From a virus (Duplodnaviria; Heunggongvirae; Uroviricota; Caudoviricetes), in IMG/VR virus record IMGVR_UViG_2671180603_000011, positions 1 to 31,153 of that record: a stretch of 31,153 nucleotides of DNA. One strand, 5' to 3'. Positions 1 to 13,605 of the stretch are shown here, piece after piece. How positions within the stretch are numbered: the first letter of the stretch is position 1; the number at the start of each line of letters is the position of its first letter. The notes under the pieces are model-generated. The model was not told the DNA's origin. It saw only the letters and a list, made by a program, of their open reading frames with translations, and searched no databases. The translations under genes and the position numbers were made by a program.

Positions 1-28
1 AAAGTGATCTACTATTCCGCGCAGCTAT

Positions 29-493
29 TTAGATTCGTCTCGCCTGCCAGAAATTTTTCTGCCAATAGACATTATCAAGTGAGGAACGCATCACTCCCTT
101 GCTGGTAGAGGCGTGGATAAATTGGTTGTTGGTATCGTAAATACCTACATGCAAACCATTTTGTCCGGAACCCGTTTTGAAAAAGACCAGGTCACCAGGC
201 AGCAACTCGTCTTTATCAATTTGCGTGCCGATAGAGGCTTGTTCTTTGGTTTCTCGGGGCAGCTGCAAATCGAAACGATCGCGCATCGTTACAACCACAA
301 ATCCCGAACAGTCCACACCGCGCCGCGTCATGCCACCATAACGATACGGCGTGCCATGCCAGCTTTGTAGCTGGTCGTTCAAACCGGCAATAACGGTAAT
401 CGAATCAGAAAGTCTGGCATTTGGCGGCGGTGCTTTATGGTGGCTACACCCGGCCAGAAACAGTGCTGTGATCAAAATAAGGCAGAAACGCAT
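29..493 (-). CDS. nlpC: NlpC/P60-family lipoprotein (peptidoglycan endopeptidase family)
   Basis: 154 aa ORF; N-terminal signal peptide with lipobox LFLAGC; C-terminal Cys-containing papain-like fold typical of NlpC/P60; lies directly downstream of btuD as in the E. coli btuCED-nlpC arrangement. Confidence 0.8.
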   Translation of the reverse strand: MRFCLILITALFLAGCSHHKAPPPNARLSDSITVIAGLNDQLQSWHGTPYRYGGMTRRGVDCSGFVVVTMRDRFDLQLPRETKEQASIGTQIDKDELLPGDLVFFKTGSGQNGLHVGIYDTNNQFIHASTSKGVMRSSLDNVYWQKNFWQARRI

Positions 494-570
494 TCCGTAC
501 GGTTCCTCTGTTTTTTATTCTTGCATTAATTTAGCGTCGTAATTACCCGATTTTCAAGATACTAATGAAA

Positions 571-1320
571 TCAGATGGTCGAAATCAGCATTCTGTGACC
601 TTCGATATCCAGACGGCGAAAATTCATCCCATAGGCCTGCGCCAGATTTGGCGGCGTGAGCACCTCTTCTCTGCGTCCACTGGCCAGCATTTTTCCACCT
701 TTTAGCAACCACGCCCGATGCGCATGACGCAATGTGTGGTTGAGATCGTGACTGCTCATCACAATCGCCAGTCCTTGCTGACACAGAGCGCTCAGAATTT
801 TGTCTAACGCACTTTGTTGCGCAACATCAAGACTGTTCATCGGCTCATCAAGAAGCAGCAATTGGCCTGCGGGATTGGCTTGTGGTGTGATTTGCAGCAC
901 CACCGCAGCAAGACGTACGCGTTGCCATTCACCGCCGGAAAGTTGATTGGTGCTACGTCCGAGTTTGTCATCAAGAGCCAGCGCCCCTGCGACATCATTC
1001 AGTAGTTCGGTACGCGTTTTATCGTGCTGATGCAGTGTCAGATAGTGCCAGACCGGCATTGCAAACGGCGGCGTCTGCTGTTGTGAAAGATAGGCGCGAT
1101 GCAGCGCGAGTTTTGTTGCGGACCATGCTTCCAGTGGTTGCCCCGCGAACTGAATACTTCCCTTACCGCTGGTCATTCCGGCCATTCGTGCCAGTAAGGT
1201 ACTCTTACCCGCGCCATTCGGCCCCACCAGGTGCAGGATCTCCCCAGCCCGAACCTCGCCAGAAAGTGGCCCCAGGCGGGTAGATTCCGCAACATCCTGT
1301 AACTGCATCACAATAGACAT
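571..1320 (-). CDS. btuD: Vitamin B12 ABC importer ATP-binding subunit
   Basis: 249 aa; Walker [13 protein letters not shown] signature LSGGEWQRV, Walker B LLLDEP; start overlaps the btuE stop. Confidence 0.9.
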
Positions 1321-1871
1321 TATTTTGCCAACGCCAGTTTAATGCTTTCCATCACAATGGGGTCTTCCGGCGTCATATCCGGGGAAAAACGCTGGATGAC
1401 CAATCCGTCCCTGCCAACTAAAAATTTCTCAAAATTCCATAAAATATCATCAGGGTACAGCGGTGCACGACCTTTGCTGACCATACGGGCATAGAATCCG
1501 CTCTCTTCCGGCGCGACTGCGGTCGGCGCTGCGGCAATCAATTTTTGATACAGCGGATGGCGTCCTTCGCCGTTAACTTCAATCTTACTGAACATCGGGA
1601 ACGTCACCCCCCATGTGGTGGTACAGTAAGTTTTAATCTCTTCATCGCTGCCCGGTTCTTGTTCCAGAAACTGGTTGCACGGGAATCCCAGCACCACAAA
1701 ACCTCGATCGGCCCAGGCTTTCTGAATATTCTCCAACTGCTCATATTGCGGCGTTAAGCCACACTTTGAGGCGACATTGACAATCAACAGCACATTACCG
1801 GCGTACTTCTCCAGCGTGGTCACTTCACCGTCGATATCTTTCACTACGGTCGTCAGAATGGAATCTTGCAT
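1320..1871 (-). CDS. btuE: Glutathione peroxidase family thioredoxin/glutathione peroxidase
   Basis: 183 aa; GPx active-site region [12 protein letters not shown] with catalytic Cys; sits between btuC and btuD. Confidence 0.9.
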
Positions 1872-1933
1872 CGTTTCTCCTGGGTGTGGTCAGTAAAAAT
1901 CTTAGCTTTTAATCATAGACCGTCTTTTTGCGG

Positions 1934-2914
1934 CTAACGTCCTGCTTTTAACAATAACCAGATAAACACCGGCGCACCCAACGTTGCGGTGACCACGCCA
2001 ATAGGCAGCTCTGCGGCAGCTAATGCCAGGCGCGCTACAATATCGGCCAGCAGCACTGCGCTCGCCCCTGCCAGCGCGCAGCCGGGAAGTAATACGCGAT
2101 GATCGGTTAAACCACACAACCGAAGAATATGTGGGATCACCAGACCAATAAAGCCGATAGCACCCGCCAGCGCCACACTGACGCCAACCATCCAGCCGGT
2201 CGCTGCCACCAGCACATTGCGCCAGAACCACAGGGGTAAACCCAGTTGCCGCGCCGAGATCTCGCCAAGTGCTAACATATTCATCGGCCTGGACTGACAA
2301 CAGATCCACAACAACACGGGGATCAATGCCAGCATCAGCCAGCTTTGCCGCCAGTCTACGCCGCCAAAACCGCCCATCATCCAGTACATCAGCTGACGTA
2401 AATCAACAGAGGTGGAAAAGTAGATAGCCCACGTCATTAGTGCGCTACAGATAATCCCTAATGCAACGCCAGCCAGCAATAACCGACTGGTCGAAAGATG
2501 ACGACGGGCGAAACGTAAGAGTATTAAAGTGATGATAAGCGCGCCAGCAATCGCACACAGCCCTAGCGCCCAGTTGGGGAGTTGCCCTTGCCCAAGCAAT
2601 ACCGCGGCGATAAGCCCCACGCCTGCGCCGTTAGAGACGCCAAGTAGTCCAGGTTCTGCCAGAGGATTTTCAAACAACGCCTGCATTACAGCGCCGGATA
2701 TAGCCAGCGCCGCACCAACCAGCAATACAGCCAGCGTACGTGGCAGGCGAATTTGCCAGACGAACAGTTCGCCACGAGGAGTAAACCAGTCACCTGGCGA
2801 AATCCATTGTTCACCGGCGCAAAGGCTTAAGAGAAGCGCCAGCAGCATCAAAACTGACAGGCATAATAACCAGCGAATATTTTGTCGCTGTTGTTGGCGG
2901 GCAAGTGTCAGCAT
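1934..2914 (-). CDS. btuC: Vitamin B12 ABC importer permease
   Basis: 326 aa, highly hydrophobic multi-span membrane protein of the FecCD/BtuC permease type; first gene of the btuCED cluster. Confidence 0.9.
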
Positions 2915-2997: not shown

Positions 2998-3106
2998 ATA
3001 ATTACATTCAAAAATCAATAAGTTACATGATTATCAATAACTTACAGACACACAAAAACACAGCCAACCACAGCAAGTAACAGGGATGTGGTCACTTTGT
3101 GGATCA

Positions 3107-3688
3107 TCAGCCAACAAATTTAGCAACAAAATACGCGACCGCCGCCGTGAAAATGGTTGTGCACACTGGCACAATAATGCCACTCCAACGCCACTTCGTA
3201 TTATCATCAACCTTGTCAAACCGCCGATTCATCTCATCCATAATCTTGTCAAAGCGTTTATCCATCGCTTCGGTAAGCTCACCCTTCAGGCTGTTAATGT
3301 CTGATTTGAGCTGCTCTTTCAGGTTAGCTGTATCAGATTTAAGCTCACCTTTCAGATTCGCAATATCGCATTTAAGCTCACCTTTCAGATGAGCAATGTC
3401 TGCTTTGAGCTCACCCTTCACCTCACCAACATCGGCTTTGGTTGAGAGGTTTGTAGTGCGTTCAGCAAGCGTCGCAAGGTCGTTTCTTGTTAGCGATAAA
3501 TCACTTTCGAGTCGCTCAATTCGCCTTTCAAGTTTATCTGACATTCCACCTCCACTACTGCCGCCATCGCCGCCATCGCCGCCATCGCCGCCATCGCCGC
3601 CATGATAAAGCACATCACGCTCAGAATGCGACATACTACCTGCTGAATTACCGAAAAGGTTTCTTGCTACATTACCCATTTTCACCAT
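3107..3688 (-). CDS. Membrane-anchored coiled-coil protein with Gly/Asp tract and 11-residue repeats (XhlA/DUF1640-like architecture); function unknown
   Basis: 193 aa; (GDG)n tract; four tandem 11-aa heptad-like repeats (D-I-A-x-L-K-G-E-L-K-x); C-terminal hydrophobic anchor IIVPVCTTIFTAAVAYFVAKFVG. Start overlaps the upstream gene by 17 nt. Architecture assigned from sequence features only. Confidence 0.5.
   Translation of the reverse strand: MVKMGNVARNLFGNSAGSMSHSERDVLYHGGDGGDGGDGGDGGSSGGGMSDKLERRIERLESDLSLTRNDLATLAERTTNLSTKADVGEVKGELKADIAHLKGELKCDIANLKGELKSDTANLKEQLKSDINSLKGELTEAMDKRFDKIMDEMNRRFDKVDDNTKWRWSGIIVPVCTTIFTAAVAYFVAKFVG
3293..3427. repeat. About four imperfect tandem copies of a 33-bp unit inside the 3107..3688 coding sequence
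   Basis: Repeating core agctcacctttcag with periodic flanks (tcagatttaagctcacctttcagattcgcaata / tcgcatttaagctcacctttcagatgagcaatg ...); encodes the 11-aa protein repeats. Confidence 0.7.
3561..3603. repeat. Tandem 9-bp repeat (ccgccatcg, about 4.8 copies) inside the 3107..3688 coding sequence
   Basis: Perfect head-to-tail copies at 3561, 3570, 3579 and 3588 plus a partial copy; encodes the GDGGDGGDGGDGG tract; in-frame unit length. Confidence 0.85.
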
Positions 3689-4172
3689 CCTGTGCTTTGT
3701 CTTTCTCCAACCACTTCAGCACCGCAGACGTACGGTAAAGGCTCAGGTAACCACAATTCAGGCAATGCAGCGTGTAATAAGTTTTGCGCATATCAGGTAT
3801 GCTCTTAACATCACCCAAAAAAGTATAAGATACATAATGCTTTATGTTCTCTTTAATTAACTCACTCTGCTCCTCCAAGGGTAGATTGTTAAAATTTTCT
3901 GGTTTCTTATTTTTATCCCAGCAAAGATCCATACTTTCAGGCACAGATAATCGAGACGATCCACATGAAGGGCAGACACTGGAAACCCCCTTCTCAGACA
4001 AGAAACGGAAGAAGATTTCTGGCGTAATCTCCATCAGCCGCTCCTTATGTTTATTGACACGACTCATCGACTTCTTATTGATTTCATCAGCTTCTTCTTT
4101 GCATTTATCTTCTATATATTTCGATAGTAAATAGTCATATAACTCTTTTTTTGTAGGTTTTTTTATTTCCAT
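3672..4172 (-). CDS. Hypothetical Lys/Glu-rich protein with a four-Cys zinc-ribbon-like signature (CPSCG ... HCLNCG)
   Basis: 166 aa; markedly AT-rich compared with flanking genes; ATG is 3 nt downstream of the int stop, with a GGGAGGA Shine-Dalgarno lying inside the last int codons. Confidence 0.5.
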   Translation of the reverse strand: MEIKKPTKKELYDYLLSKYIEDKCKEEADEINKKSMSRVNKHKERLMEITPEIFFRFLSEKGVSSVCPSCGSSRLSVPESMDLCWDKNKKPENFNNLPLEEQSELIKENIKHYVSYTFLGDVKSIPDMRKTYYTLHCLNCGYLSLYRTSAVLKWLEKDKAQDGENG

Positions 4173-4174
4173 AG

Positions 4175-5152
4175 TTACATTCCTCCCAAGGGATTAAACC
4201 TCACCGCATCCTGCAGGTAATCCGGCGCAAGATGGGCATAAATCATCGTTGTCTGAATCTTTGCGTGCCCCAGAATTTTCTGGAGCGTCAGAATATTGCC
4301 GCCGTTCATCATGAAATGACTGGCGAAGGTGTGGCGCAGCGCATGAACAGCCTGGCCGTCAGGAACATCAGGTGCGACCGTTTTGATGACATCGCGAACC
4401 AATGGATAATCCAGCGTTGGAAACACTAGTTTCCCGCCCCGTTTTTTGATCTTTTCAAACAGATTTTCGGAGATCGGGACAGTGCGGTTTTTACTGTTCT
4501 TCGTTTTTGAAAAAGTGATTCGACAATGAAGAACACGGCGCTGCTCCAGTGCCGCTACCTCGCCCCATCGCGCCCCGGTCGACAGAAGGATTTCGACAGC
4601 CAGCCGTTCATCGGGATTTTCAGCCAGTGCATCCAGCAACTGAACACATTCAGACTTACTCAGGTATCCCATTTCGCGCTCGTTAACCTTCATTCCTTTA
4701 AGGCCTTGAACGGGGTTATCGTTAAGAAAATGGCCGGATGAGATGAGTGCGGTAAACATCGCGCTTAACGCCCCAATCTCTCGATTTATGGTGCTGGGCT
4801 GTATCCCCTGCTCTATCCTGGACACACGTAGCTCGGTGAACATCGTTGTATTAAGTTTATGCACGCACGGGTCATCCATTGCCTCACTCAAGCGCAGCAA
4901 TTTAAGGCGCGTGTTATGCCCTGACTTCATTAGCTGGCCGTGGTATTTCCACCACAAGTCAATAAGCACTGACAGAGGACGGCGATCAATGGAGTTTCCT
5001 TTCCACTCATTGTTATGCTGTTGCGCCAGCACCCACCGCTCATATAAAACTGCATCCGATTTCGTTTTAAATTTTTTGCGAATGCGTCTGCCCTTACGTC
5101 CCCCCGGGCGCATATCCAGCAGGTATCCTCCTGCAATTGATTTTATGCTCAT
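4175..5152 (-). CDS. int: Tyrosine recombinase, P2-type phage integrase
   Basis: Catalytic-domain motifs HALRHTFASHF (H-x-x-R) and LGHAKIQTTMIYAHL (Tyr nucleophile); N-terminal GRKGRRIRKKF arm-binding-like region resembles P2 Int as recalled. The ORF track extends to 5263; start placed at the MSIKSIAGG Met at 5152 so the gene no longer overlaps the repressor. Confidence 0.9.
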   Translation of the reverse strand: MSIKSIAGGYLLDMRPGGRKGRRIRKKFKTKSDAVLYERWVLAQQHNNEWKGNSIDRRPLSVLIDLWWKYHGQLMKSGHNTRLKLLRLSEAMDDPCVHKLNTTMFTELRVSRIEQGIQPSTINREIGALSAMFTALISSGHFLNDNPVQGLKGMKVNEREMGYLSKSECVQLLDALAENPDERLAVEILLSTGARWGEVAALEQRRVLHCRITFSKTKNSKNRTVPISENLFEKIKKRGGKLVFPTLDYPLVRDVIKTVAPDVPDGQAVHALRHTFASHFMMNGGNILTLQKILGHAKIQTTMIYAHLAPDYLQDAVRFNPLGGM

Positions 5153-5201
5153 TCGTGAAACCCCAGCGTTACAAGACCACCACGCCCCCAGCGTTCCATG
5201 A

Positions 5202-5513
5202 TTAGCCGGGCTGTGTGCCAGTCTTGCGGGGTCTTTGTGAACGAGATGTGACATCGTACCCATCAGGGGAGAGAGAGGGACTTATCTGTCCGGCCGCTTC
5301 GTTAGTTTCATCACTCATCAGCCAAGTCGTGTATTTTTTGAGTTGTGGATGCATCGTTACTTTGAGCAAAACTTCAGTCCCTACCCCCCTAATTCCTGTT
5401 TCGTACTGTTTGACCGTACCAACCGCAATACCTATTAAATCCGCAAACTTAGCCTGACTTAGCCCCTCAGATTCCCGAATTGCTTTTAATTTATTCGAAA
5501 TTTCCATTGACAT
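5202..5513 (-). CDS. Immunity repressor candidate, small XRE/Cro-C1-type HTH protein (P2 C / 186 cI position)
   Basis: HTH LSQAKFADLIGIAVGTVKQYETG; immediately upstream of int on the same strand; ATG at 5513 has AGGTG six nt upstream. The track ORF starts at a GTG at 5522. Confidence 0.7.
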   Translation of the reverse strand: MSMEISNKLKAIRESEGLSQAKFADLIGIAVGTVKQYETGIRGVGTEVLLKVTMHPQLKKYTTWLMSDETNEAAGQISPSLSPDGYDVTSRSQRPRKTGTQPG

Positions 5514-5536
5514 GGTGTGCACCTGACTACTATATT
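5507..5536 (+). promoter_or_regulatory. Near-consensus sigma70 promoter (TTGACA, 18-bp spacer, TATATT) reading rightward into the early operon
   Basis: TTGACA at 5507-5512 and TATATT at 5531-5536. The -35 overlaps the first codons of the leftward repressor gene, so the repressor promoter must lie to the right and the two transcripts converge. Confidence 0.55.
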
Positions 5537-5606
5537 GGTTATCAGTTGAGTACCACTTGACGCTAGAAAAGCCACAAATAGCACCAGATTTAACAGGTTA
5601 TCACAC

Positions 5607-5885
5607 ATGGCAGAAGTCCTGAACACACACGAACAAGCGGATTTGGAGCGTTTGGCGGCGTTCTATCCCTACCGCGATGAGCATGGATTACCAGTACTTG
5701 AAGAAAGCCTGAAAGATTACGCAAAGCGTACCAACCAAGCTTTTAACACCGTGAAAAGACAGGCTGACAGGGGTTCGATTCCCATCAACCAGGGTGAAAA
5801 GAACTCAAGACGCACAGTAAATCTCTTCGCTCTTTTCCTGAAAACCATCAGGAGCGCAGAGAAATACGTGCAGATGACAAAATAA
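5607..5885 (+). CDS. First early-operon protein (occupies the Cox/Apl position); function not established
   Basis: 92 aa ORF directly downstream of the rightward promoter and divergent from the repressor. Positional inference only. Confidence 0.35.
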   Translation: MAEVLNTHEQADLERLAAFYPYRDEHGLPVLEESLKDYAKRTNQAFNTVKRQADRGSIPINQGEKNSRRTVNLFALFLKTIRSAEKYVQMTK

Positions 5886-5899
5886 CGAGGTGTCATTTT

Positions 5900-6238
5900 A
5901 TGCTGAAGCAACGCCGTAATTTTCGCACCGAAACGGAACGCCAAGCTAACCGTTTCGCTACCAGCGCATCACGCAGCAACATCCGCTACAGCCTGAGCGA
6001 GACGCACGCAACGCCAGATGGCCATACAGTAAAACAAATTGGCGAGCATACCTGGATGATTGAGAAAGCTGGAATAGTGGTCCACAAATACCCGCGCAAT
6101 CCGTTTACCGGAAACCGCATTTTTGCTCTGAGCTGCGGCGACAATCAGTTCGGGCAGGATTTCACGTTGTACGAAGCGCTACGCACAGTTGATCGCCTTC
6201 TTTACGGAGAAAATTTTATTAAACAGGCTGAGTTATAA
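5900..6238 (+). CDS. Hypothetical early protein
   Basis: 112 aa ORF in the co-directional early gene string. Confidence 0.4.
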   Translation: MLKQRRNFRTETERQANRFATSASRSNIRYSLSETHATPDGHTVKQIGEHTWMIEKAGIVVHKYPRNPFTGNRIFALSCGDNQFGQDFTLYEALRTVDRLLYGENFIKQAEL

Positions 6239-6279
6239 CAGCGGGTTTATCACCGGTTATTTTTAACGAGGACTCCGTT

Positions 6280-6522
6280 ATGAGAAAACACACAGCAGAA
6301 CAGGTAAACGAATTTCTGCAGGGATATTACTTCGATAACGAAATTAATCCCCGCGCCAGAAAAACACACTTCGAAGTAATGAAGTGCGGAATATTCAGCG
6401 TCCGCAACACCCTGTTTTGTTCAAAAGATACGGGAGCCAGCGAGGACCTTAAAGAACTTAACCGGATGGCGAAACAATTAACGGATGGCATGGTTCCCGA
6501 ACCCGCAATAATTACGGAGTAA
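6280..6522 (+). CDS. Hypothetical early protein
   Basis: 80 aa ORF in the early gene string. Confidence 0.4.
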   Translation: MRKHTAEQVNEFLQGYYFDNEINPRARKTHFEVMKCGIFSVRNTLFCSKDTGASEDLKELNRMAKQLTDGMVPEPAIITE

Positions 6523-6527
6523 TCACG

Positions 6528-6713
6528 ATGAATTTCAGTTATTCATTCAGTGTACCGAAGTCGTTATTTGTTATCACACTGATTGCAGCCGCAATGTTTT
6601 TTGCCATCTGCATACTGACACTTATTGATACATGGCGGGAAATACGCGACAGACGTCGTCAGAAAAAAAACGGGATGCATATAACGCATTTATTCAGCAC
6701 AAAGAAGAAGTAG
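6528..6713 (+). CDS. Small single-pass membrane protein with basic C-terminal tail
   Basis: 61 aa; hydrophobic helix LFVITLIAAAMFFAICILTLI followed by REIRDRRRQKK; lower GC than neighbours. Confidence 0.4.
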   Translation: MNFSYSFSVPKSLFVITLIAAAMFFAICILTLIDTWREIRDRRRQKKNGMHITHLFSTKKK

Positions 6714-6810: not shown

Positions 6811-7233
6811 ATGATTAATCCGACACTCACCCTCAAAGATAAAGCCCTTGCGGGCGCAATGTTTTTACGCAACTACGCCGCAATGATGGCTGACACTGAC
6901 AACCCGATGATGGTGCTGTCAGTGGAGCCTCACCTTATCGCCGCAGACGCAATTGAACAGGTGGTACAGGAAAACACCTGTCTGAGAAATCAGCTTGCCA
7001 CCCTTCAGACAGCAGCTGACCCGGCAAAGGAAAGTGCTGAACACACCTGCCACACCACATTCATCAAAGGGACCCGCGTATGTCTGAAAAACAGTCCGCA
7101 GCAACGCGGAACGGTCGTTGACACCCGCACCAGTAGCCCCGCCATTGACCGGGTTTTCGTCCGTTTCGATTCCCCCTTCGAGGAAGATCGCTGGGTAAAG
7201 ACCAGAAACCTGGAAATAACCCCCGACAAATGA
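6811..7233 (+). CDS. Hypothetical early protein
   Basis: 140 aa ORF preceded by a GGGAAA Shine-Dalgarno-like sequence. Confidence 0.4.
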   Translation: MINPTLTLKDKALAGAMFLRNYAAMMADTDNPMMVLSVEPHLIAADAIEQVVQENTCLRNQLATLQTAADPAKESAEHTCHTTFIKGTRVCLKNSPQQRGTVVDTRTSSPAIDRVFVRFDSPFEEDRWVKTRNLEITPDK

Positions 7234-7487
7234 AGCTGATTATCCCTGCGCGACACCGCAAAAACCGGATGAAGCCAGGGGGAAAGCCGGAACGGGCAGC
7301 AAGGGCGGCATACCGTCGCCTGCTGAAGGGGGACCGGTCACACGTGCGACGGCTGGAGCGGGTACCGCCCGCCCGCGTCATCAACGTCATGTACCGTTAC
7401 CGGCTGTTAAGTCTGGACGAAGGCCGGACATGGGTACTGCTTAACCATAACGAATACGTGAAGAGGATAAGACGATGTTACAGATGA
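7230..7487 (+). CDS. Hypothetical highly basic small protein
   Basis: 85 aa, Arg/Lys-rich; start overlaps the stop of the preceding ORF. Confidence 0.35.
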   Translation: MKLIIPARHRKNRMKPGGKPERAARAAYRRLLKGDRSHVRRLERVPPARVINVMYRYRLLSLDEGRTWVLLNHNEYVKRIRRCYR

Positions 7488-8005
7488 AATTTAAGCCCTG
7501 CTTTATTGACGCATTCCGCAACGGACGCAAGACCACATCCCTTCGCCCGACGGGGTTTGATTGCTACCAGGCGGGCCAGGAGTCAGCAGAATATTTTCAT
7601 GAAGACACCCTGACCCGCAACATCGTTCTTCCCGATTACAGCGCCGGCGGTACCCTGGTTTTTGAGGAGGGAACCACATTTACCCGCGCATCAGACTTTG
7701 CCGGACTCCTGAAAAGACAGCCCTACCGGCAGTATGACAACATTCATCTGGTCACAGAAAACAAGAACGGCGAAACCGTGCCGTTCGCCGTGGCCTTCAT
7801 TGCCGATATCGGTGTAATACAGGGCCGCCAGATAACCGATGAAGTGGCCGTCAGGGACGGCTTTAACCCTGAAAACCATCCCCGCGACGAACTCTTTGCA
7901 TTCATGCGGGACACCTGCCACATAGAAAACCCCAAAAACGAAACCTACTGGCGGTACACCTTCACCCACATCGTGATGTTGTCGCAGTGGAGGGCTGACG
8001 CATGA
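7475..8005 (+). CDS. ASCH (PUA-like) domain protein candidate
   Basis: N-terminal FKPCFIDAFRNGRKTTSLR resembles the ASCH opening motif (hydrophobic-x-G-x-K-T-x-E/T-x-R) as in E. coli YqfB; C-terminal extension of unknown function. Confidence 0.4.
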   Translation: MLQMKFKPCFIDAFRNGRKTTSLRPTGFDCYQAGQESAEYFHEDTLTRNIVLPDYSAGGTLVFEEGTTFTRASDFAGLLKRQPYRQYDNIHLVTENKNGETVPFAVAFIADIGVIQGRQITDEVAVRDGFNPENHPRDELFAFMRDTCHIENPKNETYWRYTFTHIVMLSQWRADA

Positions 8006-8241
8006 AACCCGCCATTATCTGCATTCTGTGCGAGAGCACTGTCACCGGCGACCATTACCGCATCAGGGAACGCCACATCAACCCTGACCGTTCGCTGCTG
8101 GACAACATCACCGGCCCGGATGATGAACGCGTGATCTGCCTGAACGACGGCTCGCAGTTACGCGTGCGCAATATCCGGCGCGAAATCACGCTCGAACCCA
8201 CCCCATTCACACGCGGGAAAAAACCGGAGAGTGACGCATGA
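8002..8241 (+). CDS. Hypothetical small protein with a CxxC pair
   Basis: 79 aa; start overlaps the upstream stop and its stop overlaps the methyltransferase start. Confidence 0.35.
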   Translation: MKPAIICILCESTVTGDHYRIRERHINPDRSLLDNITGPDDERVICLNDGSQLRVRNIRREITLEPTPFTRGKKPESDA

Positions 8242-9197
8242 AAGGTATTCTGAACCAGCGCTCACCGCTCAAATGGGCGGGCGGCAAATTCAGTATCATG
8301 CCGCAGCTGCGCGAATATTTACCCAAAGCCGCCTGCCTGATCGAACCCTTCGTGGGCGGCGGCTCGGTCTTCATGAACACGGATTATGACTATTACGTAT
8401 TGTGTGACAGCAACCCCACGCTGATTAATTTCTACCAGCAACTGACGACCAACACCACGGAATTAATGGATCGTGCATGGTCGCTCTTTAAGGATGGCGG
8501 CACACCGGAAGCCTACAAACGCCATCGCGGGGCATTTAACACCATCGCGCTGGCCACCGACAGATTACGCGGCGAATCCCTGGAATGGGCAGCGCTGTTT
8601 CTGTACCTGAACCGCCATTGCTTTAACGGCCTGTACCGCACCAACCAAAAAGGCGAATTCAATGTGCCATTCGGCAAACACCGCATGCCTTATTTCCCCT
8701 GCCAGGAAATGCGCCTGTTTGCTGATAAAGCCAACGAGACCCGGACCCGCTTTATTCACGCGGATTTCCGTACAGCCTTCACAATGCCGGCTGAGATCCG
8801 CCGTTTTTCTTCGGTGCACGGCGATATCGCCATTTACTGCGATCCGCCCTACCTGCCACCGGACGGTAAAGAGGCGTTCACTCACTACAACGGCCGGGCA
8901 TTTACCCGCAAAGACCACCGTGACCTTGCGGCGCTCATGATGAACGCCTGGCAGCGTTACGGTATCCACCCGGTGGTCTCCAACAGTGACACCTCCGAAA
9001 CCCGGCAGATCTATTCCTCGTTTGAGCTGCACACCCTGAGCGTTCGCCGCGCTGTGGCTGCCAGCAGCAGTGCACGCCAGCAGGCAAAAGAGGTGATTGG
9101 TGTTTATCCGCCAGCCCGTGAGGTCCGGATCCGGGATGTCAATGCGGGCTGGCTGTCTCACATTCCCGCTCCACACCCCACCACGGAGATCATGTAA
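8238..9197 (+). CDS. DNA N6-adenine methyltransferase, Dam/D12 class
   Basis: AdoMet-binding motif EPFVGGGSV near the N-terminus and catalytic DPPY (IYCDPPYLP, DNA 8840-8851); has a roughly 60-aa C-terminal extension. Target sequence cannot be read from the protein. Confidence 0.85.
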   Translation: MKGILNQRSPLKWAGGKFSIMPQLREYLPKAACLIEPFVGGGSVFMNTDYDYYVLCDSNPTLINFYQQLTTNTTELMDRAWSLFKDGGTPEAYKRHRGAFNTIALATDRLRGESLEWAALFLYLNRHCFNGLYRTNQKGEFNVPFGKHRMPYFPCQEMRLFADKANETRTRFIHADFRTAFTMPAEIRRFSSVHGDIAIYCDPPYLPPDGKEAFTHYNGRAFTRKDHRDLAALMMNAWQRYGIHPVVSNSDTSETRQIYSSFELHTLSVRRAVAASSSARQQAKEVIGVYPPAREVRIRDVNAGWLSHIPAPHPTTEIM

Positions 9198-9508
9198 TGG
9201 CCGTTATCTATATCGCTGGCCCCATGACGGGGAAGCCTGATTTCAACCGCACCGCCTTCACCATGACGGCGACCCGCCTGAGGATGCAGGGTCATACCGT
9301 ACTCAACCCCGCAACACTCCCTGACGGGCTGAGATACAGGGACTACATGCTTATCGGGAGCGCCATGCTGCACTGTGCCGATGTGATTTACCTGCTGGAT
9401 GGCTGGGAGGACTCGCCGGGGGCAAAAGAGGAACACGCCACCGCCCTGAAACTGAATCTGATCATCTCCACACCAGAAAGCCGTAAGGAGGCCAAATCAT
9501 GTTTCTGA
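9197..9508 (+). CDS. DUF4406-like protein (nucleoside 2-deoxyribosyltransferase-like fold)
   Basis: N-terminal MAVIYIAGPMTGKPDFN matches the characteristic IYIAGPMTG opening of this family (recalled); ATG overlaps the TAA of the methyltransferase (ATGTAATGG). Confidence 0.55.
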   Translation: MAVIYIAGPMTGKPDFNRTAFTMTATRLRMQGHTVLNPATLPDGLRYRDYMLIGSAMLHCADVIYLLDGWEDSPGAKEEHATALKLNLIISTPESRKEAKSCF

Positions 9509-10053
9509 AACCAATGGGGGTACCAGGTAAAGCACCGAAGCACGTCAGTGCCTGGACACAACAGGAAGACGAACTGCTTATCTCGCTTTATCAGGATCAC
9601 AGCACATGGCAAATGGCTGAACGACTTCAGCGAACCCGCAGCGCAGTGATGCACCGGATTCTTTTTTTACGTAATCGCGGGTTGATTGGTCGCAAGAAAA
9701 AAGCACCGCTGAGTGCAGAAGCCATCGCCTTTCTCATCAAAAACCGTCACGCAAAAACCGCACGGGAACTGGCCCGGAAGGCGGGATGCAGCGAGTGCAC
9801 CGTGAGGTACACACTGCATAAACGGGGTTACAGCCTTAAGAAATGCGGCGAGAGCCACCATTGCACCAGATACAGCGATCGTCTGACTGAGCTGGTTACG
9901 GAGTTACGCGACAGACGCAACATGACGTTCTGCATGATCGCGAAACACATCAACATCACGATGCAAATGCACATCAGCGATGATACGGCGTTTCACCTCT
10001 ACAACCGCCGGACCGCCGCCGACGCCCTGCTGTACGAACTGCTGCCGAACTGA
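9499..10053 (+). CDS. Putative DNA-binding protein with tandem HTH/Myb-like repeats
   Basis: 184 aa; three repeats with helix-turn-helix character (W-x17-W Myb-like spacing in the first; TARELARKAGCSECTVRYTL in the second); AAGGAG eight nt upstream of the ATG. Confidence 0.45.
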   Translation: MFLKPMGVPGKAPKHVSAWTQQEDELLISLYQDHSTWQMAERLQRTRSAVMHRILFLRNRGLIGRKKKAPLSAEAIAFLIKNRHAKTARELARKAGCSECTVRYTLHKRGYSLKKCGESHHCTRYSDRLTELVTELRDRRNMTFCMIAKHINITMQMHISDDTAFHLYNRRTAADALLYELLPN

Positions 10054-10169
10054 GTGATCATCATGCACACACAAAAAAACCGCTTGCCATGCCGCAATCA
10101 GTCAGGTTACATTTCCGCTGCACCTCATAAAACGGGTGCCGGGATTGAGACCCCGCTGACAAACGTAGC

Positions 10170-10196
10170 GCACAACCGCGCCAGCGGTTTTTTTGT
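10170..10196 (+). terminator. Rho-independent terminator candidate within the early region
   Basis: ACCGC-gcca-GCGGT stem-loop immediately followed by TTTTTTT (10188-10194). Confidence 0.5.
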
Positions 10197-10240
10197 GCGT
10201 ACCGTATCGTCACACCTTTTTCGCACACGAATTATGGTGG

Positions 10241-10306
10241 GGCGTACAGGGCCGACTTCGGTCGGGCCGGGTTCTGCGTTTGCCGGTAGTCTCAACCCTG
10301 TACGTC
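10241..10306 (+). other. Predicted structured element: 9 to 11 bp closing stem enclosing two hairpins
   Basis: CGTACAGGG (10243-10251) is the exact reverse complement of CCCTGTACG (10296-10304); enclosed are CCGAC-ttcg-GTCGG (UUCG-type tetraloop) and a CCGG...CCGG hairpin. Strand and function unknown. Confidence 0.3.
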
Positions 10307-10373
10307 TCACCACCCCGAGTTTGAGACCTCTGGATGGTGAGTTTTCAAAACTTACACACGTAGAGGCCACACC

Positions 10374-10601
10374 ATGGCAAACCGCAAACAACAGCGCGCC
10401 TACGCTGCGCGTCGTCACATCCAGACTGAAATCAACCGCAGACTTTTCCGCGCCTTCCGCGTCGCGCATATCATGCACATCAATATGCTGCATGAGCACA
10501 GTCACGCACTGTCAAACACCTATTCCGCCGCTGTTTTCAGCTATCTGGCGGATGATCTGCGCGGGCTGCGGGACCTCATTAACCAGCACTACCACCACTA
10601 A
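10374..10601 (+). CDS. Hypothetical small basic protein
   Basis: 75 aa ORF with AGAGG upstream; conflicts in frame with the long low-complexity ORF at 10054..10683, which I consider spurious. Confidence 0.3.
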   Translation: MANRKQQRAYAARRHIQTEINRRLFRAFRVAHIMHINMLHEHSHALSNTYSAAVFSYLADDLRGLRDLINQHYHH

Positions 10602-10669
10602 TCAACATCCCGAAGCCATCCCGCATCCATACGCGGGAGGCTTCCGCACGTCCGTTTCCGGAGGTTCTC

Positions 10670-11083
10670 ATGAAGAGCGTTAAGGGACTTTCAGATATTC
10701 AGGATTTTTTTAACTGGATGTGGGCGGTGGATCCACGCCTCGCTTCCCGTCTCAATGACCTGCACGACTATTACCGCCGCGCCTGTAAACAGGCCGCCAG
10801 CAGCGCCACCACATACGGTGACTTTTCCTTCACCGTTGACGACCGTTACCGCGTGGACGTCAGAGACCAGAACAACAGCCTGGAGCTGGGCCTGTTCCAC
10901 ATCAACGGACTCGACAGCAGTGTTATCAGCTGGTCATCGTCAGAAATGGTGCTCGTTCTGGAAATGACCACCCACAGCGTGGTCGTGAAAGGGATTAAAA
11001 CGGCAGAAGACTTTATCGCTGAATACCAGCGTCTTCTTGTGCTGTACCGGGCTGCATTTCAGAAGGCAACAGCAGGGGAGTAA
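10670..11083 (+). CDS. Hypothetical protein immediately upstream of the replication gene (P2 B-like position)
   Basis: 137 aa; GGAGG five nt upstream of the ATG; position only, no motif recognised. Confidence 0.45.
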   Translation: MKSVKGLSDIQDFFNWMWAVDPRLASRLNDLHDYYRRACKQAASSATTYGDFSFTVDDRYRVDVRDQNNSLELGLFHINGLDSSVISWSSSEMVLVLEMTTHSVVVKGIKTAEDFIAEYQRLLVLYRAAFQKATAGE

Positions 11084-11088
11084 GCGGA

Positions 11089-13605
11089 ATGAGCCATCAC
11101 AACACACACCTGGCGTACCCGTGGAATGCCCCGCTGCCGGTTATTGATCCTGAGACGTTCGGCAGAGCGTTACCGCAGAAGCCAACCGCATTACAACGGG
11201 CAATCCGGGACTACCTCACCGAAGACATTCGCACTGAGGCCCGGCTGGATGAAGAAACCGTGGTCTTCCTGACAACCACGGACAAAGGCAAACAAATTAA
11301 TTCACACCTTCACCGGGACGAAGAGCGGCAGACAAGGTTGGATAAGCTGGCACGACACAGACGCGAAAATCCGCCAACGGAGGTATCGGAAGCGATAGCC
11401 GAACTTCGCGCCCTGCCACCGTTTCTTGCCAGCGTGCTGATCCGCGATCTGGCACGCCTGAACCGGAAACAGCAAAGCGCCCGCAGCAAAGGTGTAAAAA
11501 ACAATAGCGCATACGTGGCCGATAACTTCGTTCGCCGTGGACTGCGCGCGCGCCTGAAACGTATCGAACGGGTTAACGACCGCTTTGCAACGCCGGCATT
11601 CAAATCCAGTGTCATACGCCATCGCCTTGAAGAGCTGCTCATGCTGCCGCAACTCAGCCGCGACAAGATCCAGCGCATCGCCACACTGACTGCGCAGTTC
11701 TTTACCGCAGAATTTGAACGCATATGTGATGAAGTTCCTGAACAGACCGGAAAGAATAATGACAGCCCGGTTATCTGGCTGCTGGCCTACCAGAAGATGG
11801 CACGCATAGCCTTAACGCTGGGCGTGATCCCGCCATACTGGCCGGAACTCGAAATCAGGCACAACCGACGCACACCGCCGGACCCTGAACTGATACCGGG
11901 TGCGGTACTGCGCATCACCTGCGCGACCTGGTGGAACAACCAGTTACGCCACATCGCCGATCTCTGGCGGGAGGAGTTACTGCGTGCCGCCGGCAGAGTG
12001 TCACGTAAACAATCCCCTTATATCAGCCATGAATCACTACTGGAGTTTCGCGAGAAGCGCCAGCGCACCCGTGATTTTCTCAAAAGCTGGGATATTGAAA
12101 ACGAAGACGGCGAGCGCCTGAGTCTGGAGGAAGTGTACTGGGCGGGCCCGGGAAATCCACGCAACCGCCGCAATGAAATGATGGTCTGCGTCAGAGGGAT
12201 GGAGATGGTAGCCGAATTGCGGGGTGACGTCGCATTCTTCATCACGGTAACAGCCCCTTCCCGCTTTCACAGCGTGAACGAAGACGGCAGCCTGAACCCG
12301 AAATACAACGGTGCCACTGTACGCGATACCAGTGATTATCTGGTTTACGACTTCTTCGCAGCCGTAAGAAAAAAAATCAAAAAAGAGGGGCTGGGCTGGT
12401 ACGGCGTGCGAACCGCTGAGCCACACCATGACGGCACGCCACACTGGCATATGCTGGTATTCACGTCCCCTGAGAACGCAGAGCGCATCATCGAAATTAT
12501 GCGCGACGCAGCGATTAAATCAGATCGCCACGAACTGGGGGACGATATTTCGCCGCGCTTTGAATGCGAGAAGATAGATCCGGAAAAAGGGTCGCCGGCA
12601 AGCTATATCGCAACCTATATCGGTAAGAACCTGGACGCCAGCGCCTTCCACAACAATGATCCGAAAACCGGAAAACCTTACGTCGATAAGGAATCCGGGA
12701 AAACCATGGCGGAAACCGTGGAGAACGCCATTGCATGGGCGAGCCTTCACCGCATACGTCAGTTCCAGTTTTTCGGCATTCCGCCCCGCCAGGTGTGGCG
12801 AGAACTCCGCCGCCTTGCAAGCCAGATGGAGCGCAACCCGGCATCACCGAAGCGACTCGATCATGGAGATATTGACGCCATTATGGCCGCCGCAGACGTG
12901 GGGTGTTTTGCCACCTACATCATGAAACAGGGTGGCGTGCTTATTCCACGCAACCAGTATCTGGTCCGCACCGCATACAAAACCGCAGACGAAGCTAATG
13001 ACTACGGCGAATTCCCGCAGCGCATCTACGGAATTTGCGCCCCGTCACTCGGGGAACGGTACACCATCTGCACCCATCCGGATGAGTGGAAACTGGTCAG
13101 AAAAGAATCTGACGCCGACAACAGCACGGACGAGGGTTTTGACCTTCGGGGCGGCTTCGCCGCACCTTGGACTCGTGGCAATAACTGTCCCGGTGACGAA
13201 AAAACAGCCGGAACCGGCACAGAAAACAGGCAGCGTGGGTCGCGGCTGACGCTTCCGGAAAGCGGCCTGGCGCACTGGTTGCAGACGTTAACCCGTCACG
13301 AGCGGAAACAGCTCATCAGACAGCTTAAAAATCAGCCGCCCACCACGGATACCGGACAAAATAACACCAGACCAGCATCAGACACCCCTGTCAGGGTGGA
13401 GGTTGTCGTGCCTGTCGACACCACGACCATCGCACAAATCACCCGCGAACTCGACGCGCTGGGTGTGCAGCTGCCTGACGCAGCCATTATTTCCGTGAGT
13501 AACGGTGCCCGCGTTCGCCCGGGCGACGGGCGTATCGCGTACTGGAGCGCCACAACCCGCCGTATCGTCATCACACAGGAGTCGTCAGCGGAGGTAAGAT
13601 CATGA
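11089..13605 (+). CDS. Rolling-circle replication initiation endonuclease, P2 gpA-like (HUH superfamily)
   Basis: 838 aa; HUH metal-binding motif TPHWHMLVF (DNA about 12421-12462) and paired active-site tyrosines YIATYIGKN (about 12601-12630) with the Y-x3-Y spacing known from P2 A. Confidence 0.85.
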   Translation: MSHHNTHLAYPWNAPLPVIDPETFGRALPQKPTALQRAIRDYLTEDIRTEARLDEETVVFLTTTDKGKQINSHLHRDEERQTRLDKLARHRRENPPTEVSEAIAELRALPPFLASVLIRDLARLNRKQQSARSKGVKNNSAYVADNFVRRGLRARLKRIERVNDRFATPAFKSSVIRHRLEELLMLPQLSRDKIQRIATLTAQFFTAEFERICDEVPEQTGKNNDSPVIWLLAYQKMARIALTLGVIPPYWPELEIRHNRRTPPDPELIPGAVLRITCATWWNNQLRHIADLWREELLRAAGRVSRKQSPYISHESLLEFREKRQRTRDFLKSWDIENEDGERLSLEEVYWAGPGNPRNRRNEMMVCVRGMEMVAELRGDVAFFITVTAPSRFHSVNEDGSLNPKYNGATVRDTSDYLVYDFFAAVRKKIKKEGLGWYGVRTAEPHHDGTPHWHMLVFTSPENAERIIEIMRDAAIKSDRHELGDDISPRFECEKIDPEKGSPASYIATYIGKNLDASAFHNNDPKTGKPYVDKESGKTMAETVENAIAWASLHRIRQFQFFGIPPRQVWRELRRLASQMERNPASPKRLDHGDIDAIMAAADVGCFATYIMKQGGVLIPRNQYLVRTAYKTADEANDYGEFPQRIYGICAPSLGERYTICTHPDEWKLVRKESDADNSTDEGFDLRGGFAAPWTRGNNCPGDEKTAGTGTENRQRGSRLTLPESGLAHWLQTLTRHERKQLIRQLKNQPPTTDTGQNNTRPASDTPVRVEVVVPVDTTTIAQITRELDALGVQLPDAAIISVSNGARVRPGDGRIAYWSATTRRIVITQESSAEVRS

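Follow-up and report, generated by a model that had tools for sequence, protein, structure and literature searches.

A Dam-family methyltransferase and a DUF4406 protein as an apparently linked pair in the early operon of a P88-like Escherichia coli prophage

When three consecutive phage genes overlap at their stop and start codons, the question arises whether their products also work together. Such a trio lies in a prophage of Escherichia coli and encodes a Dam-class DNA methyltransferase, a protein of the DUF4406 family and a putative DNA-binding protein with predicted helix-turn-helix (HTH) units. A preliminary description raised the possibility of a functional module, serving either simple anti-restriction or DNA base modification. 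The window analysed here (the whole stretch of DNA, 31,153 nt) is a 100% match to the chromosome of E. coli FDAARGOS_943, and the neighbours of the trio include a phage integrase, an HTH repressor, the gpA replication endonuclease, ogr, portal, terminase and a P2-family capsid. The locus belongs to the accessory cargo that a P88-like prophage of the P2 family carries in its early (lytic) operon, and is an ordinary stretch; exactly this gene arrangement is found in only 5 of 5,426 complete genomes of E. coli. With P88/Xuanwuvirus-type prophages it shares a backbone of integrase, repressor, Cox, DUF4761, DUF4754, variable cargo, C4/derepression region and gpA.

Overlapping genes are general to this early operon and not peculiar to the trio. 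Seven plus-strand genes between 6811 and 10053 are chained by six consecutive overlaps of 4, 13, 4, 4, 1 and 10 nt. The first, orf140 (6811–7233), has no match in a Pfam search and is 51–54% identical to its counterparts in the related loci L004–L006. It overlaps by 4 nt with orf85 (7230–7487), which carries a ParE-like toxin domain (PF24732 ParE_like, 1.1e-9) and is named ‘ParE family toxin-like protein’ in RefSeq. Next comes orf176 (7475–8005; phrog_27392 at 1.9e-94), probably an ASCH (PUA-like) domain protein: its own Pfam match to ASCH is weak (E = 0.019), and its Salmonella homologues (63–66% identity) have PF04266 and go by the name of ASCH domain protein. The fourth gene, orf79 (8002–8241; phrog_20193), has a 4-nt overlap (ATGA) with each neighbour and is kept alongside Dam in L004 and L006. 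Dam, DUF4406 and HTH complete the chain.

The best promoter-like site upstream of the plus-strand early genes, at 5507–5536 (plus strand) and downstream of the divergent HTH repressor gene, is a candidate sigma-70-like early promoter by consensus match only (TTGACA-18-TATATT, 11 of 12 consensus matches). Between 6811 and 10053, a consensus scan found neither a good internal plus-strand promoter (the best site has 9 of 12 matches) nor a strong plus-strand terminator. The early promoter would give rise to a single polycistronic message carrying the seven chained genes. The coding chain is closed by an immunity/antirepressor-control region (10120–10317), in which an isrK-like sRNA (10120–10194; Rfam RF01394, 67 bits) and a C4 antisense RNA (10230–10317; RF01695, 82 bits), both on the plus strand, score above gathering. 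Near isrK, a promoter-like site (10084–10113) and a terminator (10174–10189) were picked up by the scan.

As had been described, the three genes lie on the plus strand at 8238–9197, 9197–9508 and 9499–10053 and overlap by 1 and 10 nt, respectively. At the first junction, the Dam stop codon TAA (9195–9197) and the DUF4406 start codon ATG (9197–9199) share one base, and TAATG indeed occupies 9195–9199; the octamer earlier assigned to those five positions, ATGTAATG, spans 9192–9199 (plus strand). The Shine–Dalgarno sequences of Dam, DUF4406 and HTH (GGAGAG, GGAG and AAGGAGG) each lie inside the preceding gene, 7–8 nt upstream, with the GGAG of DUF4406 at 8 nt. On sequence grounds, the overlaps permit translational coupling; they do not establish stoichiometric expression. 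The two genes also share one base (TAATG or TGATG), preceded by GGAG(G), in L004–L006 and in L025, L026 and L028, where Dam is 45–67% identical, and the junction is kept across three diverged P2-like lineages.

The assignment of the first protein (8238–9197, plus strand; 319 aa) to the Dam class stands. It matches PF02086 (MethyltransfD12) at 2.5e-52 with 178.5 bits (cut-off 22) and TIGR00571 with 236.9 bits (cut-off 114.85), placing it in the same Pfam and TIGRFAM families as E. coli Dam (EcoDam; PDB 2G1P), T4 Dam and DpnII M1, and scores 232 bits against the host-Dam equivalog NF008152, under the 441-bit cut-off. PADLOC matches it to an orphan methyltransferase (MTase; 6e-80), and orphan it is, because it comes without a partner restriction enzyme. 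Compared with the EcoDam structure (2g1p), it matches at 7e-56, with an identity of ~45% (84/186) in the part tallied, the first two-thirds of the alignment. The AdoMet-binding motif I (FxGxG) is present as FVGGG at residues 38–42, and the catalytic motif IV, DPPY, at 202–205 aligns with EcoDam D181–Y184. Among the EcoDam residues with described roles in GATC recognition (K9, Y119, N120, L122, R124, P134 and Y138; PMC4417163), five are conserved as K12, N130, L132, R134 and P144, while Y119 is replaced by F129, which retains the aromatic ring, and Y138 by H148. Unlike EcoDam, the prophage protein has a 25-aa C-terminal extension (residues 294–319), and its gene sits in the early operon of a prophage, coupled to DUF4406.

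This residue pattern is consistent with GATC specificity without proving it. Judging from family membership and the conserved contact residues, the enzyme would most likely methylate GATC on replicating phage DNA, which would shield that DNA from GATC-cutting restriction enzymes and maintain full methylation. Simple anti-restriction, one of the two roles first suggested, is the best-supported reading of the predicted GATC methylase. What advantage a further GATC methylase would bring is not obvious, given that E. coli has a Dam of its own.

The second protein (9197–9508, plus strand; 103 aa) likewise belongs to the family first named for it, with a match to PF14359 at 5.8e-30 (104 bits against a cut-off of 22) that aligns residues 3–90 with profile positions 2–89 of 91. 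It is a minimal member of the nucleoside deoxyribosyltransferase (NDT) superfamily, confidently modelled (pLDDT 93) with the NDT-type Rossmann-like alpha/beta fold already proposed. No solved structure related to it is detectable by sequence, and the literature searched reports no biochemistry for any DUF4406 member and mentions the name only in passing. The closest structural match of the model is the CMP hydrolase MilB. MilB and BlsM are CMP/hmCMP N-glycosidases, and DNPH1/Rcl is a 2′-deoxynucleoside 5′-phosphate N-hydrolase; all are longer (150–165 aa), and HMMER detects no sequence similarity between them and DUF4406.

Across 42 diverse DUF4406 members, S73, G75, A76, E79, G8, N17, F21 and P38 are invariant; E79, which takes the position of the nucleophilic Glu where helix 3 begins, is so in a 33-member set as well. 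The S-x-G-x3-E spacing is identical to that of DNPH1 (Ser87/Gly89/Glu93) and MilB (Ser97/Gly99/Glu103), in which the Ser and Gly bind the 5′-phosphate (PMC3834327, PMC4081090). In N-glycosidases of the superfamily, a Tyr at the N-terminal position marks deoxy and a Phe ribo substrates, as in the F17Y switch described for MilB (PMC4081090); here the position after strand 1 is Y5, and the family has Tyr in 33 and Phe in 9 of the 42 members. An hhalign comparison with a manually entered Rcl sequence, which at E = 0.11 is alone not significant, places Y5, G8, G12, S73, G75 and E79 on Rcl Y13, G16, G20, S87, G89 and E93.

Two features set DUF4406 apart from DNPH1 and MilB. The third residue of the triad (Asp, rarely Asn, on helix 2; Asp69 in DNPH1) is not retained: the position aligned with it has Gly54 in this protein and, in most family members, Cys (Cys 27, Asp 7, Ala 4). 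Its place might be taken by N17 or N37, both invariant, or by D43, which is frequent. The protein also ends after strand 4 and helix 4, with no counterpart to the C-terminal strand/helix that in DNPH1 makes second-subunit contacts through a second phosphate-binding Ser and Met119′. Because the triad Asp position is unconserved, we class DUF4406 as working like the hydrolase branch rather than as a proven member of it. The protein could be a binder instead of an enzyme or act on a different substrate.

Another phage-encoded member of the superfamily, DmtZ of Z-genome phages (Gordonia phage Ghobes, Arthrobacter phage Wayne), hydrolyses dAMP and transfers deoxyribose 5-phosphate using a Tyr6/Asn77/Glu103 triad, and its gene adjoins that of another nucleotide-pool enzyme. 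DmtZ is longer (~145 aa), is linked to the dUTPase-like DutZ and to PurZ0 instead of methyltransferases and probably does not belong to PF14359, because no Pfam model covered it and its authors used a hand-made HMM. No sign of the Z-genome pathway was seen in this prophage. The retention of Tyr5, the Ser-x-Gly clamp and the Glu of the DNPH1/Rcl–MilB–DmtZ branch suggests that DUF4406 most likely is a (d)NMP hydrolase; the model gives the fold with high confidence, and the chemistry is inferred from the conserved residues. It would bind a (deoxy)nucleoside 5′-monophosphate and split its N-glycosidic bond to yield the free base and (deoxy)ribose 5-phosphate, and would work on the nucleotide pool rather than on DNA. 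A mycobacteriophage protein in which DUF4406 is fused to a MazG/PRA-PH-type pyrophosphohydrolase domain makes sense for an enzyme acting at the NMP level.

The third gene (9499–10053, plus strand) encodes a 184-aa putative DNA-binding protein with three predicted HTH (Myb/SANT-like) units (phrog_323 at 2e-27), whose relatives are named ‘SANT/Myb-like DNA-binding domain-containing protein’ in RefSeq. Its description as a triple-HTH protein is plausible in view of the AlphaFold (AF2) model, which has 3-helix units at residues 21–59, 73–108 and 127–168 (pLDDT 80, overall pTM 0.47), but its Pfam matches all fall below gathering (HTH_11, 23.4 against 25; Myb_DNA-bind_6, 16.9 against 22.9). Foldseek returns weak matches to bipartite HTH domains (among them Tc3, 2lvs and Pax) with E-values of 0.025 or worse.

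It is at this gene that the idea of a three-gene functional module breaks down. A mosaic breakpoint at ~9510 separates DUF4406 from HTH, and the HTH–isrK/C4–gpA block beyond it is common to many E. coli prophages; in two inspected relatives with this block, the annotation shows neither Dam nor DUF4406 in the interval from Cox to gpA. The IMG/VR loci L180 and L182 have the HTH gene without DUF4406. Conversely, the common P88-like type has a D12 Dam plus a DUF4406 protein ~60% identical to the window's and no HTH gene; its Dam and DUF4406 genes are set apart by two small ORFs, and a 3′–5′ exonuclease precedes them. The HTH protein would be an independent DNA-binding protein of the adjoining isrK/C4-derepression–gpA block. 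Its suggested role as a methylase regulator or target-recognition (specificity) factor was rejected, as the gene travels with the downstream block, in at least two prophages where neither Dam nor DUF4406 is annotated.

The remaining pair does look linked, and the connection between DUF4406 and DNA methyltransferases guessed at the outset is supported by both adjacency and co-occurrence. All 13 DUF4406-positive P2-like loci have a D12 Dam, and among 63 P2-like contigs 4 carry both genes, 15 Dam alone, none DUF4406 alone and 44 neither. An MTase lies within 5 kb of DUF4406 in 29 of 80 IMG/VR loci and immediately adjoins it in 17 of these 29, or in 7 of 14 distinct architectures where a random gene slot would give ~2 of 14, although such counts overstate the number of independent events because the sampled loci are related to each other. 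The adjacent MTases belong to three families (D12, PF05869 and C5) in a consistent order, with adenine MTases of two families upstream and C5 MTases downstream. Across 77 genome loci from diverse species, no recognisable class of neighbour is as common as the MTases, which come from four families and make up ~14 of 228 neighbours. In other phages, the DNA methyltransferases that repeatedly adjoin DUF4406 come from four or five Pfam families, and in Gordonia phage Clown an N6_N4 MTase overlaps a truncated DUF4406 gene. The repeated adjacency to unrelated MTase families, together with the Dam-only occurrence in P2-like phages, makes it probable, though speculative, that the DUF4406 substrate is connected with methylation, for example as a methylated dNMP. 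The reading towards which we lean is that of a predicted GATC methylase and a predicted (d)NMP N-glycosidase, probably linked to methylation, which lie next to an independent HTH gene as early-operon cargo of a P88-like prophage.

Alternatively, Dam, DUF4406 and HTH might be unrelated accessory genes that accumulated in an early-operon hot spot, with the overlaps as normal phage packing. The six consecutive overlaps do join seven unrelated genes, the breakpoint falls right at the DUF4406/HTH junction, and the neighbours of DUF4406 are highly varied (DnaB, replication protein O, lysozyme, integrase, a RecA-dependent nuclease, DUF551, DUF968 and others). Moreover, no methyltransferase is found within 5 kb in 51 of the 80 IMG/VR loci or nearby in ~63 of the 77 genome loci, and 15 of the 19 Dam-positive P2-like contigs do without DUF4406, so neither gene needs the other. 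Yet pure mosaicism does not readily explain why the 1-nt junction is retained although Dam diverges to 45% identity, why none of the 44 Dam-negative P2-like contigs has DUF4406, or why MTases of three unrelated families adjoin it in consistent order and far above random expectation. We consider this explanation unlikely, while still giving it real weight.

A more specific role for the pair would lie in counter-defence, with DUF4406, possibly together with the ASCH/PUA-like protein, destroying or sequestering a nucleotide alarm, the best candidate being N6-methyl-dAMP (m6-dAMP) released from Dam-methylated DNA. This nucleotide has been reported as the activating ligand of the E. coli PUA-Calcineurin-HAD system, sensed by a PUA/ASCH-clan domain (bioRxiv 10.64898/2026.01.15.699771), and a phage that adds further m6A to DNA would gain from clearing the signal. 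As a sanitising dNMP N-glycosidase that removes m6-dAMP, and perhaps 5-methyl-dCMP, DUF4406 would block the re-use of such nucleotides or the triggering of defences that sense them. This would explain the adenine-methylase neighbours of two families, the cytosine-methylase neighbours and the ASCH-like gene, which lies two genes upstream in the same conserved block. In favour, too, are the residues of a dNMP-binding N-glycosidase, the adenine MTases directly upstream and the early expression of a gene whose family extends over 531 phage records of very different kinds, many of them actinobacteriophages, and 18,672 clusters at 50% identity. The DNPH1 pocket tolerates N6-substituted adenine nucleotides, but as inhibitors and not as substrates (PMC3834327), and the counter-defences reported against PUA-Calcineurin-HAD are DNA-mimic proteins, not hydrolases (bioRxiv 10.64898/2026.01.15.699771). 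C5 cytosine MTases neighbour DUF4406 as often as adenine MTases do, and DUF4406 has no PADLOC matches. To our knowledge, P2-type temperate phages do not degrade host DNA, the source of the m6-dAMP signal. With the case circumstantial throughout, both the counter-defence role and the sanitising activity are distinctly unlikely.

That DUF4406 is a classical nucleoside 2-deoxyribosyltransferase, swapping bases between deoxynucleosides for salvage, is what phrog_355 and many GenBank annotations state, and one family member has a weak match to PF05014. True NDTs have an Asp six positions before the catalytic Glu that contacts the 5′-OH (Asp92 in the Lactobacillus leichmannii enzyme). DUF4406 has the invariant Ser73 there, as do the phosphate-binding DNPH1 and MilB (Ser87 and Ser97), its top structural match is MilB, and it is without the C-terminal segment with which NDTs complete their active site, all of which renders this activity very doubtful. 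Finally, the DNA base-modification module of the preliminary description, in which Dam and DUF4406 would install a non-canonical base with DUF4406 processing DNA bases and HTH giving target recognition, is highly improbable: a DNA methylase does adjoin a glycosyl-bond enzyme, NDT-fold enzymes form covalent deoxyribosyl intermediates and DmtZ supplies a non-canonical base (Z) to the nucleotide pool, but the substrate of DmtZ is dAMP and not DNA, DUF4406 consists of one domain of 103 aa that lacks a DNA-binding module and shows the pattern of a closed pocket of the mononucleotide type, the HTH gene is unlinked to the pair, the operon contains no further modification genes (only a ParE-like gene, an ASCH gene and small ORFs), and DUF4406 is spread over hundreds of phages of varied types, among them many actinobacteriophages for which we know of no report of hypermodified DNA.

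As it stands, the locus is routine prophage annotation, its three proteins already being so named in RefSeq. What is gained concerns DUF4406, a very large family for which the conserved residues provide a concrete prediction, namely that Glu79 is the nucleophile and Ser73/Gly75 the phosphate clamp of a (d)NMP N-glycosidase, and which acquires a reproducible genomic partner in DNA methyltransferases. If confirmed, the link to methylated nucleotides would tie phage methylases to the newly described bacterial immune sensing of m6-dAMP and would also correct widespread mis-annotations of DUF4406 proteins as ‘nucleoside 2-deoxyribosyltransferase’, ‘deoxycytidylate deaminase’ or ‘hydrolase’.

A P2-family prophage carries the Dam, DUF4406 and HTH genes in its early operon. 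Positions 7400-11200 of the window are 100% identical to the chromosome of E. coli FDAARGOS_943, and the placement follows from the RefSeq neighbours in the matching stretch: minus-strand genes for a phage integrase and an HTH repressor, and a long plus-strand operon followed by the gpA replication endonuclease (PF05840, 2.9e-105) and then by ogr, portal, terminase and P2-family capsid genes. The closest named relatives are the P88-like phages (Xuanwuvirus), with which the common region lies only downstream of the trio, and 5 of 5,426 complete E. coli genomes share the exact Dam-DUF4406-HTH arrangement. In the host chromosome record, a small BRCT-domain gene adjoins the intact phage integrase. 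The same record annotates, upstream of that integrase (window 1-2100; L001, the host record, 3294-6650), an IS2 element within a second integrase gene, split into two pseudogene fragments, which may be the remnant of an older element integrated at the same site.

All three open reading frames of the preliminary description are present on the plus strand: Dam (8238-9197, 319 aa), DUF4406 (9197-9508, 103 aa) and the HTH gene (9499-10053, 184 aa). Dam and DUF4406 do overlap, as had been reported, yet the octamer ATGTAATG occupies 9192-9199 rather than 9195-9199, the last base of the Dam TAA (9195-9197) being the first base of the DUF4406 ATG (9197-9199). The third gene indeed starts inside the second, with an overlap of 10 nt. 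The start codons of the three genes each have a Shine-Dalgarno sequence 7-8 nt upstream, within the gene before. This arrangement is common to seven genes and not peculiar to the trio: six successive overlaps of 4, 13, 4, 4, 1 and 10 nt chain the genes from 6811 to 10053. A consensus scan of the plus strand found neither a good internal promoter nor a strong terminator within the chain; its best promoter-like match covers 5507-5536. Translational coupling is thus possible, but the overlaps alone imply neither the fixed stoichiometry originally proposed nor a three-gene functional unit.

Two further members of the chain deserve mention. In the chain, orf85 (7230-7487, plus strand) encodes a protein with a toxin domain of the ParE-like type (PF24732, 1.1e-9) and shares 4 nt with the upstream orf140 (6811-7233, plus strand); the two may form a toxin-antitoxin-like pair in the early operon, for which no antitoxin family was recognised. 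An ASCH (PUA-like) domain protein is the probable product of orf176 (7475-8005, plus strand): the direct Pfam match is weak (E 0.019), but PF04266 is present in Salmonella homologues that are 63-66% identical. Together with orf79 (8002-8241), Dam and DUF4406, orf176 makes up a block conserved in two other IMG/VR loci (L004 and L006). PUA/ASCH domains have modified bases or nucleotides as ligands, and the assignment would therefore fit a methylation theme. The orf176 protein has no similarity to the ASCH-looking neighbour of DUF4406 in lambdoid loci, for which we claim no ASCH identity.

The HTH gene is part of a neighbouring mosaic block, and its overlap with DUF4406 is a recombination joint, since some prophages carry the block from the HTH gene to gpA with no Dam or DUF4406 annotated, and others carry Dam and DUF4406 but no HTH gene. 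Many E. coli prophages align to the window only from ~9510, through the RNA region and into gpA, at ~84% identity. In two inspected prophages sharing this block, no Dam or DUF4406 is annotated between Cox and gpA, and small hypothetical ORFs precede the HTH gene; two IMG/VR loci (L180 and L182) likewise have the HTH gene without DUF4406. Conversely, in the commoner P88-like prophages, which lack the HTH gene, two small ORFs separate Dam from a DUF4406 that is 60% identical to that of the window. The Dam-DUF4406 side of the joint is common to only five complete genomes. The breakpoint itself is sharp, with nucleotide similarity setting in at the opening codons of the HTH gene. A three-gene module, as first suggested, finds no support in these separate occurrences. 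As to the protein, the label 'triple HTH DNA-binding protein' is fair for the predicted fold: an AlphaFold model (pLDDT 80, pTM 0.47) contains 3-helix units at residues 21-59, 73-108 and 127-168. Pfam matches (HTH_11, Myb, sigma-70 region 4) all fall below threshold, and Foldseek matches are weak (E ≥ 0.025), pointing to the bipartite HTH domains of Tc3 transposase, a CRISPR-repeat binding protein, Pax and Reb1. A small HTH gene 3′ of DUF4406 in lambdoid loci gave no BLASTP match to this protein, while phmmer connects both to proteins of L004 and L005 (IMG/VR).

Downstream, a 209-aa ORF (10054-10683) was rejected as a gene, the region being occupied by RNA genes: an isrK-like Hfq-binding sRNA (10120-10194) and a P1/P7-type C4 antisense RNA (10230-10317), both on the plus strand and above the Rfam gathering threshold. 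With a promoter-like site (10084-10113), a terminator (10174-10189) and a Derepression-family ORF (10374-10601) 3′ of the RNA genes, the region looks like a C4-controlled antirepressor/derepression switch directly before gpA.

The Dam-class identity of the methylase, a D12-class enzyme, holds (PF02086, 2.5e-52; TIGR00571, 237 bits where the cut-off is 115). Its top PADLOC model is 'orphan methyltransferase', the other matches being generic or orphan methyltransferase models only, and no restriction enzyme gene accompanies it. Residues 7-293 align with the E. coli Dam (EcoDam) structure 2G1P (E 7e-56), with ~45% identity over the tallied part of the alignment; motif I (FVGGG) lies at residues 38-42 and the catalytic DPPY at 202-205. 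Among the residues with assigned roles in GATC contact (PMC4417163), K9, N120, L122, R124 and P134 of EcoDam are kept, Y138 is replaced by His and Y119 by Phe, so that the intercalating aromatic is retained. Because most of these contacts are conserved, the prophage enzyme is likely GATC-specific.

DUF4406, the identity of which is borne out by a PF14359 match across its whole length (5.8e-30), belongs to a family of 18,672 clusters at 50% identity (E ≤ 0.001). In an alignment of 42 diverse members, G8, N17, F21, P38, S73, G75, A76 and E79 are invariant, and position 5 is Tyr in 33 and Phe in nine. The spacing of Ser73-x-Gly75-x3-Glu79 is identical to that of DNPH1, in which Ser87 and Gly89 bind the 5′-phosphate and Glu93 holds the sugar hydroxyls (PMC3834327), and matches Ser97/Gly99/Glu103 of MilB (PMC4081090). 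A profile alignment to an approximate sequence of rat Rcl (E 0.11), to be read for residue correspondence only, places Y5/G8/G12/S73/G75/E79 on Y13/G16/G20/S87/G89/E93. In MilB, the counterpart of Y5 is Phe, and the F17Y exchange changes the substrate from CMP to dCMP (PMC4081090); DmtZ, an enzyme from phages, requires Tyr6 and Glu103 (PMC12884076). Since the Tyr/Phe position is the MilB switch site, the family may include both NMP- and dNMP-specific members. These residues argue for binding of a nucleoside 5′-monophosphate, probably a deoxy monophosphate here, and cleavage of its glycosidic bond, and against the nucleoside transferase function given in many annotations.

Some features set DUF4406 apart. 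The Asp/Asn of the nucleoside deoxyribosyltransferase (NDT) triad is not kept at the aligned position (Gly54 here, mostly Cys in the family), and, unlike DNPH1, DUF4406 has no C-terminal segment to complete the active site from a second subunit. It shares the fold, nucleophile, Tyr/Phe and phosphate clamp of the nucleotide N-glycosidase branch and lacks its conserved Asp; because of this last point, we say that DUF4406 appears to 'work like' DNPH1 and MilB and do not call it a proven member of the branch. Sequence and profile searches of the PDB found no solved DUF4406 structure (chance matches only, E > 0.6), a PADLOC search with the protein gave no match, and the literature searched names 'DUF4406' in three papers, each time in passing, and 'PF14359' not at all. 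Fusion partners are uninformative as a functional clue bar one: 38 of 42 longer proteins of the family show no second domain that can be recognised, the others only DUF7768 or DUF551, the exception being a MazG/PRA-PH-type domain in mycobacteriophage NihilNomen gp166 (annotated 'nucleotide pyrophosphohydrolase'; L087, a GenBank phage record, 1980-2726). The label 'deoxycytidylate deaminase' on actinophage Kepler gp54 and Stormageddon gp123 (GenBank records L088 1980-2348 and L089 1995-2339) is wrong, DUF4406 being the only domain.

The company that DUF4406 keeps is more telling. Of 80 IMG/VR loci with a DUF4406 gene, 13 are P2-like; each of these carries a D12 Dam, which abuts DUF4406 in eight. 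Three lineages, with Dam proteins no more than 45-67% identical, have a junction in which the stop and start codons share 1 nt (TAATG or TGATG) and GGAG(G) lies 5′ of it. Starting instead from gpA, 63 P2-like contigs include 19 with Dam and four with DUF4406, all four carrying Dam and none of the 44 Dam-negative contigs having DUF4406 (hypergeometric ~0.007, for contigs that are mutually related). DUF4406 in lambdoid loci usually lies 3′ of DnaB or replication genes; four such loci have a PF05869 adenine methylase, of an unrelated family, directly 5′ with an ATGA overlap, and seven a C5 cytosine methylase directly 3′. Overall, a methyltransferase lies within 5 kb in 29 of the 80 loci and immediately adjacent in 17; counted by distinct architecture, adjacency is seen in 7/14, against ~2/14 expected for a random slot. 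Around DUF4406 in 77 species-diverse genome loci, methyltransferases from four families (PF05869, C5, N6_N4 and EcoRI-type) form the largest recognisable class, with ~14 of 228 sizeable neighbours, and in the Gordonia phage Clown (an actinophage) an N6_N4 methylase overlaps a truncated DUF4406 gene. Across all loci, adenine methylases stand 5′ and C5 methylases 3′. A diverged P2-like lineage (IMG/VR loci L025, L026 and L028, ~3100-5300) has DUF4406 between a D12 Dam 5′ (1-nt overlap) and a C5 methylase 3′ (4-nt overlap). Most DUF4406 genes have no nearby methylase—there is none in the annotated Vibrio, Pseudomonas and Mycobacterium phage contexts—and most Dam genes no DUF4406, so neither strictly depends on the other. 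We read the association as real but facultative.

On the account with the most support, the operon, transcribed early after induction or infection, would supply Dam to methylate GATC sites of the phage DNA and, from the same message, DUF4406 to hydrolyse a nucleoside monophosphate in the pool; the HTH protein would act elsewhere, most plausibly at the adjacent isrK/C4 immunity region. The functional connection between Dam and DUF4406 we infer from gene neighbourhood only. A counter-defence role is an improbable alternative. A recent preprint reports N6-methyl-dAMP from Dam-methylated DNA as the activating ligand of the E. coli PUA-Calcineurin-HAD defence, sensed by a PUA/ASCH-clan domain (bioRxiv 10.64898/2026.01.15.699771), and either DUF4406, as a dNMP glycosidase behind an adenine methylase, or the ASCH-like protein (7475-8005), encoded two genes 5′ of Dam in the block conserved in L004 and L006, could remove this signal; a literature search for anti-defence roles of phage NDT-like proteins found nothing specific. 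The DNA hypermodification module envisaged earlier finds no support: other modification genes are lacking, as is a DNA-binding module in DUF4406, and DmtZ, the one phage relative in the superfamily that has been characterised, acts on dAMP and not on DNA (PMC12884076). That the HTH protein regulates the methylase or recognises its targets is at odds with its gene belonging to the neighbouring mosaic block.

The naming of the trio is not new, as RefSeq already gives all three genes the same identities. Dam is a further member of a well-known type of enzyme, the HTH protein an ordinary phage DNA-binding protein, and DUF4406 an uncharacterised family within a well-known superfamily. What is new here is the documented coupling of DUF4406 with methyltransferases and a specific biochemical prediction for DUF4406, and nothing else.
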